Positions 2,651-55,534 of a DNA stretch of 64,000 bases are shown here, piece after piece. Within the stretch, counting starts at the first letter, position 1; the number at the start of each line of letters is the position of its first letter. Source of the DNA: Patescibacteria group bacterium (lineage in GTDB: Bacteria > Patescibacteriota > Doudnabacteria > UBA920). The position numbers and the translations under genes are program-made. The stretch is taken from the NCBI GenBank assembly GCA_013387205.1, contig WARV01000001.1, positions 86 to 64,085 on the forward strand, given 5' to 3'. Below the pieces are notes generated by a model. That model ran no database searches. It saw only the letters and a program-made list of their open reading frames with translations, and was not told where the DNA came from.

Positions 2651-3027
2651 TACCCGAACAATGCATAAAAATAGCGATTGAGAATGGATATGACTTTTGG
2701 GGTTACAAAGACTTCAAAATGGATGATGAAAGAGTTGTCCTAATTTACAATGGCGACTGTATGGACGAAAGGCCGCTTTCTGATATAGCCCAAGACCCTG
2801 CTTTCTGGCAAGCCTTAGGCAAGGGGTTTGGGTGGGACGAAAAAGCATTTTGCAATCACTGTTACATTGACAAGCAAAGTTGGGAGGAGAAGCCGAGAAA
2901 GTGTGCAGGTGACTGGCTTAAACACGAATTTAATGACTGGCTCTACCACGCTCTCCGTTACTTTGAAACCCTCTTAACCGGCGGCAACCTGGAGCAGTTC
3001 TGGAAAAAATTATTACCAAAGGAGTAA
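2647..3027 (+). CDS. Hypothetical phage protein
   Basis: ORF track entry. Overlapping start/stop with its neighbours. Confidence 0.5.
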   Translation: MIPEQCIKIAIENGYDFWGYKDFKMDDERVVLIYNGDCMDERPLSDIAQDPAFWQALGKGFGWDEKAFCNHCYIDKQSWEEKPRKCAGDWLKHEFNDWLYHALRYFETLLTGGNLEQFWKKLLPKE

Positions 3028-3470: not shown

Positions 3471-3728
3471 ATGGAAAACAACATTGAGAAAAAAGAATGG
3501 CAAAAAGTGTTTTTAGAAGCAGGAACGAAAGAAGTCGGACTTGATTTGTCGATTATGATACCAGTAGTGTCCTCCCTCCTCACCGAAGCCCGTCAGCAAG
3601 TGATTACAGGGATAAGGGAGATGGTAACCGAACGGTTGCGGAACTTTGCCAATACTCCAATATTAGACCGGAAAAATGGTTACGAGGAACTAGCCGATTT
3701 CCTTAAAGCCTTAAACAAACTTAGCTAA
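3471..3728 (+). CDS. Hypothetical phage protein
   Basis: ORF track entry. Confidence 0.45.
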   Translation: MENNIEKKEWQKVFLEAGTKEVGLDLSIMIPVVSSLLTEARQQVITGIREMVTERLRNFANTPILDRKNGYEELADFLKALNKLS

Positions 3729-3881
3729 AAACAATTATGACTAATCACCAACTTTATTTATTAATATCAAACTTATTCTTAATAGCCTCTTTCATATCTA
3801 ACAAGAATGATGGAATATTACTAGTTATTAGTTTTATTTGGTTAATGTTATCAATATTATCTTTAATCTTTAAATAATAAT

Positions 3882-4142
3882 ATGAAAGAAATCGAACTAA
3901 ATCCAGACGGCACATTTCCACGGAAGTATGCAAAGGCACAATATGTGACTTATACAGCCACTACCAGTTTTAACCCTGACTGGAAACCCGAACCGAAAAA
4001 GCCAAAGACGTGGAAAGGGCGACGGAAAGAAGTTAAGGATTTCATTGTTTACTTGTGGATTATGTGGTGCTTGGTTAGTGGAAGTCTATTGTTACTCTGG
4101 CAAGTAATACGGGTAATAGTTTGGATAATTAAGAAATTTTAA
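3882..4142 (+). CDS. Hypothetical protein with C-terminal TM helix
   Basis: ORF track entry. C-terminal hydrophobic stretch LWIMWCLVSGSLLLLWQVIRVIVWII. Confidence 0.4.
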   Translation: MKEIELNPDGTFPRKYAKAQYVTYTATTSFNPDWKPEPKKPKTWKGRRKEVKDFIVYLWIMWCLVSGSLLLLWQVIRVIVWIIKKF

Positions 4143-4146
4143 CCCT

Positions 4147-4347
4147 ATGGAAATTAATCTTTGCTGTGACGACTGCGGTATTGAAGCCAACAGGCTGACA
4201 TGCCTTAAAAAATATGGACATGAGCCGCTTAAAAAGAAGTTTGACTGCTCGACCTACCACTTAGGGCAGTGCGACAAATGCAAGCAGGAAAAGTGGATTA
4301 CGGAGGTTAGGGATTTTTACCATCCTGATTTTGACCTTATAAGCTAA
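4147..4347 (+). CDS. Small Cys-rich (Zn-ribbon-like) protein
   Basis: Cys pairs CCDDCG...C...CDKCKQ. Confidence 0.4.
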   Translation: MEINLCCDDCGIEANRLTCLKKYGHEPLKKKFDCSTYHLGQCDKCKQEKWITEVRDFYHPDFDLIS

Positions 4348-4364
4348 AACTAAAATTAATTATA

Positions 4365-4676
4365 ATGAAAAATAACCAGGAAAATTCACCATACTATCAC
4401 AGTGAACTAAAAGGATGCAAGTTAATAAAGCGTAAGATTTGGCCAAGTAAATCCTCTTCTGCAACGGATAAATACCGTTGGCTGGATGGAAGATACTGCC
4501 TTACCCACAAAACGGTTTGTTGCAGATGTGGTTGGCAGTTTGGTTATCATAACGGAGATTCCAGTGCGTGGTTGAATAAGATGTTTGCTAATTCTAAAAG
4601 AGATTATACAGTAACCCCGGAAATGAGAATAAAGCTTTTAAATAACTTAAGTAAAACTCCTAGTTGGCAAAAATGA
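4365..4676 (+). CDS. Hypothetical Cys-rich protein
   Basis: ORF track entry. Contains CLTHKTVCCRCGWQFGYH. Confidence 0.4.
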   Translation: MKNNQENSPYYHSELKGCKLIKRKIWPSKSSSATDKYRWLDGRYCLTHKTVCCRCGWQFGYHNGDSSAWLNKMFANSKRDYTVTPEMRIKLLNNLSKTPSWQK

Positions 4677-4915
4677 AGATTTCATGTCCACATTGCAAAA
4701 GAATAGTTATGGAAACAGATGGAAAGGTCATGACCATACTTTTAAAACGTAACAAAGATTTTATTACCATACCATTCTCCAGTGGTCCATTTTACCATAG
4801 TTTATGCGGAAATTCCTTTGCAATGCCCTTGTCAGAAATCACAATTAGGAGTATAATCATAACAGACACAATCAAAGAGGCTGCTTGCGAAACATCAAGC
4901 GTAAACCAAAGATAA
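4664..4915 (+). CDS. Small Zn-ribbon-like protein (SCPHCKR...)
   Basis: ORF track entry. Start overlaps the upstream stop. Confidence 0.35.
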   Translation: MAKMKISCPHCKRIVMETDGKVMTILLKRNKDFITIPFSSGPFYHSLCGNSFAMPLSEITIRSIIITDTIKEAACETSSVNQR

Positions 4916-45291: not shown

Positions 45292-45320
45292 GAATACCTC
45301 AACCGTCGGTTGAGGTATTC
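45292..45320. repeat. 29-bp perfect palindrome GAATACCTCAACCG-T-CGGTTGAGGTATTC
   Basis: Exact reverse-complement arms of 14 bp. Checked base by base. Confidence 0.8.
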
Positions 45321-45347
45321 ATACGCCTATAAACATTGGTTAAATTT

Positions 45348-45387
45348 AATTCCCGGAAAACGAGCGATCGCTCGTTTTCCGGGAATT
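45348..45387. repeat. 40-bp perfect palindrome AATTCCCGGAAAACGAGCGA|TCGCTCGTTTTCCGGGAATT
   Basis: Exact 20+20 reverse complement. Checked base by base. Confidence 0.8.
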
Positions 45388-48089: not shown

Positions 48090-48968
48090 TTATTTTAGGT
48101 ATTTATTTTTATTTTTAACATGTTCTTCAAAGGTTTTGCTGTATACCGGCTCCCCTGACGGCTGTTTATGGAGAAAATAAAAATAGTCGGTGCTGGCAGG
48201 TTCAAGAGCTGCCTGGATTGATGACAGCGAAGGGTTACAGATTGGACCCGGAGGCAGGCCTTTGTATTTATAAGTGTTGTAAGGCGAATCAATCTGCAAA
48301 TCGTCAGCTGAAGCGGTCGGGGTGTTTTTTTTGGTGATGTAATTTATAGTTGCGTCGCTTTGCAGCGGCTGGCCGGTATTTAGGCGGTTGTAAAAAATTC
48401 CGGCAATTATCTTCCTTTCATCAGCCAGCTGCTGTTTTGCTTCAAGAGTTGCCGCGTTCCTGCCGGTTTCTCTTTCTATAATGGATGCCAAGGTGAGAAT
48501 TTCGTAAACCGACATATGCCTTTTTCCAGCCTGGCCCTGCATCTCTTCCGTGAATTTTTGGGAAAAATTTTCCAGCATTTTTTTGATGATCAAAGAACTT
48601 TCCGCAACGTTGGATTCTTTGCTGGAGCCTGAATTTTTCGGGACACGGTATGTGTCAGGAAATAAGAAACCTTCAAGACTGGCTCCCGAAGGCTTGGAGC
48701 CAAGGAAAGGATATTTATCCGCCCTAAAATCCTTTTGCGCGGATATGAAGCTTTTTGCGTCAGTCAGGCCCTTTTTTTGCAAATAGCCGGCTATATCGTC
48801 CGTGGTCCAGCCTTCTATTATCGTAATGGTATCTTCCGGAGCCTTGGCTAACTGTTTTTGCAATCTTTCCAATTTTTTTTGCTGAGTAAATTTAAAAACG
48901 GCAAAGGAACCCAATGCCAAAAACACGATGAAGGAAACCAATAGCCAGATTGTAAATTTTTTTATCAT
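48090..48968 (-). CDS. mltG: Endolytic murein transglycosylase MltG (YceG family)
   Basis: N-terminal TM, FPDTYRVPK, ASIIERETG and GIFYNRL motifs. Confidence 0.8.
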   Translation of the reverse strand: MIKKFTIWLLVSFIVFLALGSFAVFKFTQQKKLERLQKQLAKAPEDTITIIEGWTTDDIAGYLQKKGLTDAKSFISAQKDFRADKYPFLGSKPSGASLEGFLFPDTYRVPKNSGSSKESNVAESSLIIKKMLENFSQKFTEEMQGQAGKRHMSVYEILTLASIIERETGRNAATLEAKQQLADERKIIAGIFYNRLNTGQPLQSDATINYITKKNTPTASADDLQIDSPYNTYKYKGLPPGPICNPSLSSIQAALEPASTDYFYFLHKQPSGEPVYSKTFEEHVKNKNKYLK

Positions 48969-49039: not shown

Positions 49040-49480
49040 TTACTCGCCGATAATTTTTACCCAAATTTCCCTGTTTCGGCCTCCGTCGAATTCCAAGAAA
49101 AACAAGCTTTGCTTTCCGCCTAAAAGCATGTTTCCCTGCTCAATTATCACTTCCTGGGACGATCCCATGAGGAATGTTTTTATATGGGCGTGGCCGTTAG
49201 ACCTTTCGTTAGGGGCAACCTGTTGCCTGACTTCAAATAAATCATGGCTGTAGCTGATATCAATGGGAACCAAACGGTACATGGTTTTCATTAGGTCCTG
49301 GATTAGCAAAGGTTCGTTATGGTTCAGGCGGATGGCTGCTGTGGTGTGCGGAGAATAGACGACCGCAATGCCGCTTTTTACCATGGATTCGGAAACCGCG
49401 TGTCTGACCTGTTCTGTAACGTCTAAAATTTCAAATTGTTTTTTTGATTCAAGGCTGATTTTTTTAAAAAAAGTTTTCAT
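49040..49480 (-). CDS. yjbQ: YjbQ/UPF0047-family protein (secondary thiamine-phosphate synthase-like)
   Basis: VVYSPHTTAAIRLNHNEPLLIQDL and GHAHIKTFLMGSS motifs. Start at MKTFF (49480). Confidence 0.75.
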   Translation of the reverse strand: MKTFFKKISLESKKQFEILDVTEQVRHAVSESMVKSGIAVVYSPHTTAAIRLNHNEPLLIQDLMKTMYRLVPIDISYSHDLFEVRQQVAPNERSNGHAHIKTFLMGSSQEVIIEQGNMLLGGKQSLFFLEFDGGRNREIWVKIIGE

Positions 49481-49665
49481 TTTACATCTCAACTTTTTGT
49501 TCCAAAAAATTTTAATAATTTTGGAAGTATAATAATTTTTATTTTAAATTTTTATATTGCAGATTAAACAATTGATTTTCTGGTTGCACTTGCGAAATTC
49601 GTATAAAACTTTACGCACCTGTGTAATCTGTGAACAATATAATTATACTACAAATATCGCAAAAC

Positions 49666-49706
49666 AAAAACCCGCTTCCGGACATGCCGGATTAGCGGGT
49701 TTTTTG
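49666..49706 (-). terminator. Intrinsic terminator (AACCCGCT...AGCGGGTT with flanking A/T runs), likely bidirectional
   Basis: 8-bp GC stem. T-run on both strands. Confidence 0.55.
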
Positions 49707-49868
49707 AAGTAGTCTCAAAACCTCATTTTGGCTGCAATCCCAGAATTTTAGCTGCAAACTTTTCATCGAAACTCACCGTAGCCTTAAGGCTACGCCATCG
49801 TTTCTCTTCAAAGTTTTCGCTTAAAAATTCTGGGATTTCGCCACAAAAGCACGTTTTGAGACTACTTC
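49706..49868. repeat. 163-bp nested imperfect palindrome. Outer arms of 16 bp, GAAGTAGTCTCAAAAC / GTTTTGAGACTACTTC. Inner arms AATCCCAGAATTTT / AAAATTCTGGGATT. Central hairpin CGTAGCCTTAAGGCTACG.
   Basis: Exact complementarity of the outer 16-bp arms and the inner 14-bp arms. Located immediately 3' of hup. Confidence 0.7.
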
Positions 49869-49877
49869 TGACTTCAA

Positions 49878-50150
49878 TTACAGGATGGCGTCTTTTGCCT
49901 GTTTGGCTACGCGGAATTTTATAACGGTCTTGGCCGGGATTTGGATTTGTTCGCCGGTGGCCGGGTTCCTGCCCATTCTGGCATCGCGATGCTTTTTAAC
50001 CAACTTGCCCAATCCAGGAATGGTGAATTCGCCGTTCTTTTTGGTTTCGTTATAAGCTAATTCCACAACGGCTTCGAGCATTTCGCTTACTTCTTTGCGA
50101 GTCTTTCCCAGCTTGTCGGCCAGGGCTTGCAAAAGTTCTGACTTGGTCAT
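49878..50150 (-). CDS. hup: HU-family DNA-binding protein
   Basis: 90 aa with GFGKF-like core ...PGLGKLVKKHRDARMGRNPATGEQIQIPAKTVIKFR. Confidence 0.85.
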   Translation of the reverse strand: MTKSELLQALADKLGKTRKEVSEMLEAVVELAYNETKKNGEFTIPGLGKLVKKHRDARMGRNPATGEQIQIPAKTVIKFRVAKQAKDAIL

Positions 50151-50629
50151 ACTTTTTTTGTCTCCCTTTTCCTTTTCCCTCCCCTCTTTGGGAGGGTAAG
50201 GATAAGTACTTGCTTAAGTTAATTTCATAATAAATATAGCAAAAACCCTAATAAAATCAAGGGTTTTTAAAATAATGTCAAGGGTTAAGCATCGTTTATA
50301 ACCTTTAATTTTTAAAGAAAAATTTAATAAATGGCTTAATTAAGCGAAAAATAATAATTTTTTACAATTTTACCTTAAAAATAAATATCCACAAGCAAAT
50401 CAAAAACACATAGTTTTTATTTATCCTATGACGTTTTTATACTGATTTTAAGCAATGAAACTAACCCCTCTGCTAGCAGAGGGGTATCGGGGTAGTTTCC
50501 TTATCAAAGTGGAAGCTCAAAAGCTATGTATTGGGCAAAGCCCAAGACAAGCTAGTTCCGCTTCCTCACTTAATTCGGCCTCATCCCCGCAGCAAGCTGC
50601 GAAGGATTCGGCCTTCCATAAATAAATCT

Positions 50630-51664
50630 TTATAATATCACCATTCCGTCGCCGAATGAAAATAGCCGGAATTTTTTATCAATTGCCTGTTTGTATAATC
50701 TTAAAATGTTATTCCTGCCGGCAAAAGCAGACACGAGCATGAGCAGGCTGGATTTTGGCACATGAAAATTAGTGATAATGCCATCGACAAAATTAAATTC
50801 GTACCCTTCTTTAATAAACAAATCAGTGTTTCCAGAAAGCATTCTGATTTTGCTGTTTTTGCAGGAAGATTCCAAAGTTCTCACTGCGGTGGTGCCTACG
50901 GCTATAATAGGCCGGCCTTGCGCTTTGGCTTGGTTTAAAAAAACGGCTGTTTTTTTATCAATCTCAAAAAATTCTTCGTGCAATCTGGATTTTTCCAAAT
51001 TTTCTTGTTTTAAAGGAGCAAAGGTTCCAAGCCCTACATTTAAATTAATAAAGCAGCTGTCAAATCCCAGTTTTTTTAAATTTTGTAAAAGGGTTTTGGT
51101 AAAATGCAGGCTCGCAGTAGGCGCGGCAACGGAAAGGCCGGTCTTGGCAAAAACTGTTTGGTATTGTTTGCGCAATTCTTTTTCAGATAAAGGAGAGTGC
51201 TTGATATAAGGTGGGAGCGGTGTTATTCCGCGCTGCTTTAAGACTTTGGTTATTTGCGAAGAGATAAATAAAGGCTTTAAAATATAAAAATTATTTTTTT
51301 GGGAACTAACTTTGAATTTGATTTTTTTTGACAAGGTTAGCTCGTCCCCGATTTTTAATTTTCTATCAGAAAGTACGGTTATTAAATCATTTTTGTGGTT
51401 TATATACAATAATCTTGCCAAGCCGCCGGAAGGTTTTGTTATAACTAGCCTGGCCGGCACAACGGTAGTGTGGTTAAAAACCAGCACTGCGTCTTTTGGA
51501 AGATAAGCCCCGAGGTTTTTGAAAGTATCAAGAAAAGTTTTTTTGGTTTTTTTATTGAAAACCAAAAGCCTGGCGCCATCTCTCGGAGAAACCGGTTTTT
51601 GGGCAATGAGTTCTTTGGGAAAGCTGTAATCGTATTTTTTCAGAGTTTGTTCAAGATTTTCCAT
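50630..51664 (-). CDS. queA: S-adenosylmethionine:tRNA ribosyltransferase-isomerase
   Basis: FNHTTVVPARL, AVGTTAVRTLES and FSFGDGM motifs. Start MENLEQ at 51664. Confidence 0.85.
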   Translation of the reverse strand: MENLEQTLKKYDYSFPKELIAQKPVSPRDGARLLVFNKKTKKTFLDTFKNLGAYLPKDAVLVFNHTTVVPARLVITKPSGGLARLLYINHKNDLITVLSDRKLKIGDELTLSKKIKFKVSSQKNNFYILKPLFISSQITKVLKQRGITPLPPYIKHSPLSEKELRKQYQTVFAKTGLSVAAPTASLHFTKTLLQNLKKLGFDSCFINLNVGLGTFAPLKQENLEKSRLHEEFFEIDKKTAVFLNQAKAQGRPIIAVGTTAVRTLESSCKNSKIRMLSGNTDLFIKEGYEFNFVDGIITNFHVPKSSLLMLVSAFAGRNNILRLYKQAIDKKFRLFSFGDGMVIL

Positions 51665-51695: not shown

Positions 51696-51729
51696 AACAA
51701 GGATGCCCCTTGCAAGGGGCATCCTTGTT
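51696..51729. repeat. 34-bp near-perfect palindrome AACAAGGATGCCCCTTGCAAGGGGCATCCTTGTT, ~30 nt upstream of the queA start
   Basis: Arms exactly complementary over 15 bp. Confidence 0.7.
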
Positions 51730-51754
51730 CTGTTTATAAAAACCTTGGATTAAA

Positions 51755-51782
51755 AAGGACACCCCGATGAATCGGGGTGTCC
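51755..51782 (-). terminator. Hairpin GGACACCCCGAT-gaa-TCGGGGTGTCC with a T-run on the minus strand (terminator of the small peptide gene)
   Basis: 12-bp perfect stem followed, on the minus strand, by TTTTTAATCC. Confidence 0.6.
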
Positions 51783-51795
51783 TTTGAGATTTTTT

Positions 51796-55421: not shown

Positions 55422-55495
55422 CAAAATGAATGGCTCAACTTAACCCCGTCAAATTGTATTCTTATTTGACTGGGGCGGTTGAGCCATTCATTTTG
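55422..55495. repeat. 74-nt long hairpin. 18-bp perfect outer stem CAAAATGAATGGCTCAAC / GTTGAGCCATTCATTTTG plus an imperfect inner stem.
   Basis: Base-by-base check. Lies in the rarA/yeaD divergent intergenic region. Confidence 0.7.
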
Positions 55496-55506
55496 CCTAA
55501 TTTGGG

Positions 55507-55534
55507 CACTTCGATACATCGATGTATCGAAGTG
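55507..55534. repeat. 28-bp perfect palindrome CACTTCGATACATC|GATGTATCGAAGTG
   Basis: Exact 14+14 reverse complement, ~70 nt upstream of the yeaD-like start. Confidence 0.8.

Follow-up and report, generated by a model that had tools for sequence, protein, structure and literature searches.

The question raised by this locus is what a 163-bp palindrome adjacent to hup, the gene of the HU protein, represents. An earlier note, made from the letters of the window (the whole 64-kb stretch of DNA analysed here), named three candidates: a miniature inverted-repeat element (MITE), a structured RNA in the hup 3' UTR, and a cruciform or bent-DNA binding site for HU. The geometry of the palindrome, the hup loci of relatives and homologous hairpins elsewhere are considered below, and a MITE-like mobile element is the reading that they favour.

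Palindrome in the hup Transcription Unit

The palindrome is nested and imperfect, with 12 positions left without pairing, and it is the longest among the inverted repeats of the window (Table 1). The outer arms (16 bp) and the inner arms (14 bp) are exact, as the earlier note stated, and the outer pair is 88% complementary when extended to 25 nt. The centre, described there as a hairpin with an 8-bp stem, is a perfect 18-nt palindrome (9 + 9), which in the predicted fold forms a 7-bp stem with a 4-nt loop. The whole 163 nt are predicted to form one rod, with RNA fold energies of -68.9 kcal/mol (plus strand) and -79.9 kcal/mol (minus strand) and DNA fold energies of -43.4 and -50.0 kcal/mol, respectively. 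The fold z scores range from -10.7 to -13.4 for plus-strand RNA and for the DNA of both strands; a 221-nt stretch of minus-strand RNA, with the terminator included, gives -11.8. No shuffled sequence folded as well as the native one in any of these tests. With the sequence as described and z near -12 for both strands, the claim of a 163-bp nested palindrome is confirmed. The element contains no ORF of 40 aa or more. Searches of the window with the 16-mer arm, allowing up to 3 mismatches, and with the 11-mer core, allowing up to 1, revealed no second copy; the 14-mer inner arm, with up to 2 mismatches, gave one extra match, which is at chance level.

A chance palindrome or an assembly foldback artefact could be suggested by four metagenome matches of the search described below (L006, L021, L023 and L024), which are perfect palindromes running into their flanks, look like assembly foldbacks and were set aside. 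The window palindrome, in contrast, is imperfect, has ordinary flanks without mutual complementarity and folds with a z of about -12. Its homologues in independent assemblies effectively refute this explanation.

Table 1. Features of the hup locus, in coordinates of the window.
Feature	Coordinates	Strand	Remarks
yceG	48090-48968	-	Gene order
yjbQ/UPF0047, downstream gene	49040-49480	-	hup-yjbQ-yceG synteny common to relatives without the element
Intrinsic terminator, bidirectional (AAAAACCCGCT...AGCGGGTTTTT)	49666-49704		Ends the hup transcript beyond the element; equivalent hairpin right after hup in relatives
Foldback element, MITE-like, 163 bp	49706-49868	-	Minus strand folds better and is homologous to the G.U-rich strand of relatives
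Terminal inverted repeat arm GAAGTAGTCTCAAAAC	49706-49721		11-bp core AGTCTCAAAAC at 49711-49721, invariant family-wide
Inner arm AATCCCAGAATTTT	49736-49749		Partner 49824-49837; CCC/GGG replaced by UUU/AAA in L004
Apical perfect palindrome CGTAGCCTTAAGGCTACG, hairpin tip	49777-49794		Sequence and fold
Inner arm AAAATTCTGGGATT	49824-49837		Partner 49736-49749
Terminal inverted repeat arm GTTTTGAGACTACTTC	49853-49868		Core GTTTTGAGACT at 49853-49863
hup (HU, 90 aa; Pfam Bac_DNA_binding)	49878-50150	-	Stop codon 9 nt ahead of the element
Promoter-like site for hup, TTGATT-16-TATATT with TG extension	50233-50260	-	Consensus match only
queA	50630-51664	-	Gene order

On the hup strand, the stop codon TAA is followed by TTGAAGTCA (9 nt), by the element and then by AAAAAACCCGC...GCGGGTTTTT, i.e., the terminator read from 49704 to 49666. 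The palindrome thus belongs to the 3' UTR of the hup transcription unit, ahead of the terminator. The earlier note correctly placed it immediately downstream of hup; the terminator, which was said to sit just upstream, lies downstream of the palindrome, because hup is encoded on the minus strand. The element is not itself an intrinsic terminator, since no U-run follows it on the hup strand; AAAAAA is found there, and the terminator is a separate hairpin. An independent sRNA gene was not adopted as an explanation, as no promoter-like site is present upstream and the element is embedded in the hup unit.

Other structures are observed in the window. An AT-rich leader of about 160 nt (49481-49641) separates the yjbQ start from a promoter-like TAGTATAAT (49642-49650, minus strand); its equivalent in relatives is about 20-45 nt long or includes an extra DUF5654 gene. 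Another nested hairpin occupies 55422-55534, with exact 18-nt arms (55422-55439 and 55478-55495) and inner pairing of CCCCGTCAAAT...ATTTGACTGGGG; its arms (55422-55495) are followed by a perfect 28-bp palindrome (55507-55534). Paired perfect palindromes lacking loops are located at gene ends at 45292-45387 and 51696-51785 (14 + 14 and 20 + 20; 17 + 17 and 15 + 15, respectively) and are probably terminators without strong T-runs.

hup Loci of Related Genomes

Among the HU proteins of the public collection, those closest to HU of the window are 84-90% identical to it. The hup loci of relatives (L025-L031 and L078-L081, at least five different assemblies) were compared with that of the window. 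The gene order queA-hup-yjbQ(-MscS)-yceG is kept in several of them. In the loci read at sequence level, a plain terminator hairpin is located 6-25 nt past the hup stop codon, and the spacer between hup and the next gene is 44-122 bp in all relatives vs. about 385 bp in the window. In 65 kb of the relatives' loci, the covariance model built for the element detected no family copy. The window thus represents a filled site and the relatives represent empty ones, containing the terminator alone or a spacer too short for the element.

Given the simple terminator and the short spacer of relatives, the simplest explanation is that the window lineage gained about 163 bp. The flanks are too diverged for the exact empty site to be defined. 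The window element looks like a lineage-specific insertion.

In one close relative (L028, 3294-3325), the stem of the hup terminator (ACTACCTCT/AGAGGTAGT) is the same 9-mer that forms the tip of the L004 and L018 elements described below, in inside-out order. The chance probability of this match, estimated from the background rate in the fetched loci, is roughly 0.01; it could reflect target preference, a footprint or coincidence. Another relative (L080, 9341-9434) carries an unrelated intergenic nested hairpin of 94 nt (AAAAGGCCCCTGTCAAAC...GTTTGACAGGGGGCTGTT).

Homologous Hairpins with Common Termini

Homologues were searched for in GTDB species genomes and JGI metagenomes with two 11-mers, AGTCTCAAAAC...GTTTTGAGACT, at hairpin spacing. 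Four loci were matched in the first collection and 20 in the second, against a chance expectation roughly estimated at about 2 per collection; in the GTDB scan one match was found in each of three genomes. Two groups were left once chance matches and assembly foldbacks had been removed. The members are non-coding, 140-165 bp in length, and the whole interior is self-complementary too. Each end consists of a variable tip of 5-6 bp and an 11-bp core (AGTCTCAAAAC/GTTTTGAGACT), the core being invariant and the tips similar in L001, L002, L004, L009, L018, L016 and six copies of a sister subfamily.

Group 1 has the termini (A)GARGT-AGTCTCAAAACC...GGTTTTGAGACT-ACYTC(T). Besides the copy of the window, which is Patescibacteria-like, it comprises a copy of a Saccharibacteria MAG which follows the terminator of rpsT and precedes the next gene (L004); a copy in a divergent intergenic region (L018); a copy which, like that of the window, abuts a terminator T-run (L009); a copy upstream of murA in a Patescibacteria MAG (L001 = L012); and a copy between unrelated genes in a Planctomycetaceae MAG with 61% GC (L002). 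The elements of the window, L004 and L018 can be aligned end to end with 60-81% identity, and 15-16 of the 16 arm positions are identical. L001, L002 and L009 have the termini alone in common; their interiors are unrelated in sequence, yet again form complete hairpins. The interior of L002 is GC-rich like its host, with unchanged termini.

No target-site duplication is found at the window copy (flanks AAGTCA vs. AAAAAA) or at the other members with the GARGT tip, save an ambiguous TA in L004 and L009. A degenerate 6-bp duplication around the GARGT-tip copies was rejected, the 14 matches at 36 positions not being regarded as above expectation. The copies of the window (flank 49869-49877) and of L009 (2385-2397) both abut a terminator T/A-run on one side and have an AATTGAA(G/C)T-like stretch on the other, although their interiors are unrelated. 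These shared flanks possibly reflect an insertion-site preference.

Several further matches were set aside. L003 (Bizionia), L005, L007, L010, L014, L020 and L017 have only the 11-mers in common or lie on other, ORF-poor contigs, and a second L015 candidate (4656-4786) failed to fold (z = 0.16). Three of these loci, all from metagenome Ga0209679 (L005 2717-2859, L007 1126-1265 and L010 2476-2635), have AGTCTCAAAACTCAC... arms in common and fold weakly; their ORF-poor contigs are possibly eukaryotic, and the flanks contain a AGTCTCGGAAC-like tandem of the core.

Sister Subfamily and Its Mobility

Group 2, the sister subfamily, has the termini A-ACCTG-AGTCTCAAAACCC...GGGGTTTTGAGACT-CAGGT and the same 11-bp core as Group 1. 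It is represented by six copies with 93-99% identity, each on a contig of its own in metagenome Ga0136558 (contig GC 42-44%); the copies may not all come from one genome. Their boundaries are sharp. Four of the six copies are flanked by perfect 6-bp direct repeats, all of them different (CATACA, TTAATA, TAAAGA and TATTTA); of the remaining two, one has a 7-bp repeat, AAATATA, and one has none. Different perfect 6-bp duplications are a signature of recent transposition, and the sister subfamily is therefore mobile. No transposase was found among ten proteins of these contigs by Pfam. A copy related to Group 2 (L016) occupies the rplJ-rplL spacer.

Homologue Inside a tmRNA Gene

A full-length diverged homologue was identified by profile search of the fetched loci in L019 (3669-3830; nhmmer E = 7e-8, covariance model 123 bits). 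It is located within a tmRNA gene (3607-4161, plus strand; Rfam RF00023, 51.6 bits), which was missed by ARAGORN. This gene carries a 174-nt insertion at pseudoknot 1, and the insertion holds the 162-nt hairpin homologue. The fold energy of the homologue is -72.7 kcal/mol on the tmRNA strand vs. -41.4 kcal/mol on the other strand. Covarying and G.U changes have moved its arms away from the canonical termini, as would be expected for an old copy kept only as an RNA structure. L019 contains three long hairpins inside 2 kb: the tmRNA-embedded one, a Group 2 copy (4668-4829) and a different hairpin of about 150-190 nt at 2770-2922 (minus strand; -70 vs. -52.6 kcal/mol), with a weak model match of 28 bits.

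The distribution of the family bears on the proposal that the palindrome is a cruciform or bent-DNA binding site of the adjacent HU, serving autoregulation or nucleoid organisation. HU prefers distorted DNA, and cruciform extrusion is possible in principle, given -43 and -50 kcal/mol for the single strands. The site, however, is downstream of hup and not at its promoter, the element is absent from every related hup locus examined, and homologues are found near rpsT, murA and rplJ-rplL and inside the tmRNA gene, i.e., at loci unrelated to hup. Moreover, HU binding cannot explain the invariant core, because the binding of HU to cruciforms is not sequence-specific. Past the adjacency to hup this candidate finds no support, and we regard it as scarcely credible.

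Strand-Specific Signals

Double compensatory changes are observed at 19 of the 65 predicted pairs among the window, L004 and L018 elements, and at 27 of 59 when L019 is added. Counts of G.U vs. A.C, obtained from each element aligned to its own reverse complement, amount to 34:9 on the strand homologous to the minus strand of the window (hup-sense); individual ratios are 2:1 for the window, 6:0 for L018 and about 7:1 for Group 2. A non-palindromic bulged-A motif (GCGA...GCAGC), read from the alignments, recurs on the G.U-rich strand. Compensatory changes, G.U bias and the bulged-A motif therefore indicate a constraint or a bias on one single strand. Possible sources of the asymmetry are selection on RNA, a single-stranded transposition intermediate or transcription-linked C-to-T mutation, and the compensation itself could be mimicked by concerted evolution of the two arms.

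One explanation of these signals is a functional structured RNA, a long 3'-UTR hairpin which controls the fate of the hup mRNA as a barrier to exonucleases, a target of RNase III or a protein-binding rod; mobility would then be past or incidental, and the element exapted. The position between the stop codon and the terminator implies transcription with hup, and the hup-sense strand folds better (-79.9 vs. -68.9 kcal/mol). Pairs are kept through compensatory changes, the G.U bias of L004, L018, the sister subfamily and the tmRNA-embedded copy concerns one and the same homologous strand, and the conserved bulged-A motif is non-palindromic. The arms are still perfect though no flanking duplication survives, and a homologue functions within a tmRNA.

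On the other hand, relatives of this HU manage without the element, and the family members are tied neither to hup nor to any gene class. L004 follows a terminator and precedes the next promoter, and L018 also lies ahead of a promoter; both may therefore be untranscribed. Within the wider family, the elements point both ways with respect to the neighbouring genes. In the window copy itself just 2 G.U stand against 1 A.C, and the G.U bias could be produced by transcription-linked C-to-T mutation. Strict conservation of the 11-bp core across phyla would not be expected from selection on structure alone. The candidate of the earlier note is consequently borne out in its position, and the compensatory changes and G.U bias fit a single-stranded form; the family, however, is not tied to this gene. 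A functional structured RNA is considered rather unlikely.

Single-stranded DNA could be the recognised form as well, i.e., the palindrome could be a folded recombination substrate read as one strand, like integron attC or the hairpins of HUH/Y1 transposases. attC sites are imperfect palindromes of 57-141 nt which resemble the family in conserved ends, a variable hairpin interior, extrahelical bases and strand selectivity; here the length is 130-165 nt, an extrahelical base is conserved, the strands are asymmetric, and members with the GARGT tip lack target-site duplications. The end boxes R''/R' of attC have the consensus RYYYAAC...GTTRRRY. The corresponding TCAAAAC/GTTTTGA, 10 bp inside the ends, fits just the AAC/GTT part of it, and about 10 bp more of stem lies outside AAC/GTT. 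No integrase, cassette or array is found nearby; the neighbours of the window element are hup, yjbQ and queA. Fixed 6-bp duplications occur in the sister subfamily, whereas HUH and integron recombination make none, and no conserved target tetranucleotide is evident. Such a substrate is thus very improbable.

Most Probable Origin of the Palindrome

The palindrome is best explained as a copy of an undescribed family of non-autonomous, MITE-like, hairpin-forming mobile elements, with a rough probability of 0.6. Like MITEs, which span about 50-500 bp, it is short (163 bp) and non-coding, its terminal inverted repeats are common to the members, and filled and empty sites are distinguished. This reading rests on the evidence of the family, not on copies in the window. 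Among the three candidates of the earlier note, the MITE is the best supported, albeit in part: the shared termini, the mobile sister subfamily and the empty sites speak for it, while the window holds one copy in its 64 kb, without a recognisable duplication.

In the window lineage, a copy would have entered the short stretch that separates the stop codon of hup from its terminator. The mobilising enzyme could be a transposase binding the 11-bp core, presumably acting in trans or now lost. After insertion the element would be co-transcribed with hup, its rod of about -80 kcal/mol directly preceding the terminator hairpin. By analogy with the Correia and ERIC elements discussed below, the effect would most likely be neutral, or a mild change in the stability of the mRNA 3' end or in RNase III processing. 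The palindrome is probably a passenger in the hup transcript, and the idea of an HU-specific site is removed.

The weak points of the MITE-like reading are the window copy without duplication, the low copy number and the missing autonomous partner: neither an autonomous element with the same ends nor an extra arm was found in the window or the fetched loci. Furthermore, an invariant subterminal core combined with tips that differ between the subfamilies is unusual for the ends of DDE transposons, and a plain DNA transposon needs neither compensatory changes nor a G.U strand bias. A more novel reading is that the family is no ordinary remnant of a DNA transposon but a cross-phylum, strand-specific hairpin element; some protein would recognise its invariant 11-bp helix (AGUCUCAAAAC/GUUUUGAGACU) and the bulged-A motifs in the form of folded RNA or single-stranded DNA. 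This is distinctly unlikely; if true, it would mean a new route of mobilisation or a host-recruited RNA module colonising mRNAs and even tmRNA.

A MITE-like family would be of interest in several respects. Patescibacteria (CPR), with their small genomes, are considered poor in mobile elements. Horizontal exchange between Patescibacteria, Saccharibacteria, a Planctomycetaceae MAG and a lineage with 42-44% GC would be marked by the invariant core that they have in common. The family would also supply long RNA structures in 3' UTRs and inside genes, the tmRNA case included.

Comparison with Known Systems

Rfam gave no matches in the whole window at the gathering score, and at E up to 10 the locus yielded only chance-level matches far below threshold, most of them mainly on the terminator and its flank. 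A blastn comparison with plasmids and phages gave no real match. Viral contigs had no match with both arms; 46 single-arm matches, all without the partner arm, were attributed to chance. A literature search with the arm sequences returned only sgRNA cloning oligonucleotides and aptamers, none of relevant context, and no paper describing MITEs in Patescibacteria was found. REP/RAYT elements were not adopted, as a GTAG head is present in some members only. Nor were Tn3-family ends, as only L001 has GGGG...GTCTCA, which we take to resemble them.

The Correia/NEMIS elements (CREE) of Neisseria are small (100-155 bp) and co-transcribed with their neighbours, and their hairpin transcripts are cleaved or bound by RNase III (PMC10969869, PMC2649163). 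The present family is similar to them as a small non-coding intergenic element with terminal inverted repeats. The Correia elements, however, are unrelated in sequence, reach hundreds of copies per genome and possess a TA duplication, an IHF site and outward promoters, whereas this family is low-copy, occurs in several phyla and is self-complementary over its full length, a 6-bp duplication being produced by the sister subfamily.

ERIC sequences, about 127 bp long, are imperfect palindromes located in intergenic regions that are transcribed, and copies at gene 3' ends alter mRNA levels (PMC10969869). An imperfect palindrome in a transcribed intergenic region is found here as well. ERIC sequences differ in having no sequence similarity to the family, in their restriction to Enterobacteriaceae and Vibrionaceae and in their tens to hundreds of copies. 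Precedents also exist for MITEs in 3' UTRs which alter transcripts (PMC10969869).

Rickettsia palindromic elements are selfish elements of 100-150 bp, the mechanism of their mobilisation being unknown. They are typically in frame in protein-coding genes, while no frame is open across all members of the present family, and the host range is other; compared by description, the two are called unrelated in sequence. They share the presence inside a functional RNA gene: one Rickettsia palindromic element is located in the tmRNA gene of R. bellii (PMC1458961), as the homologue of L019 is in its own tmRNA gene.
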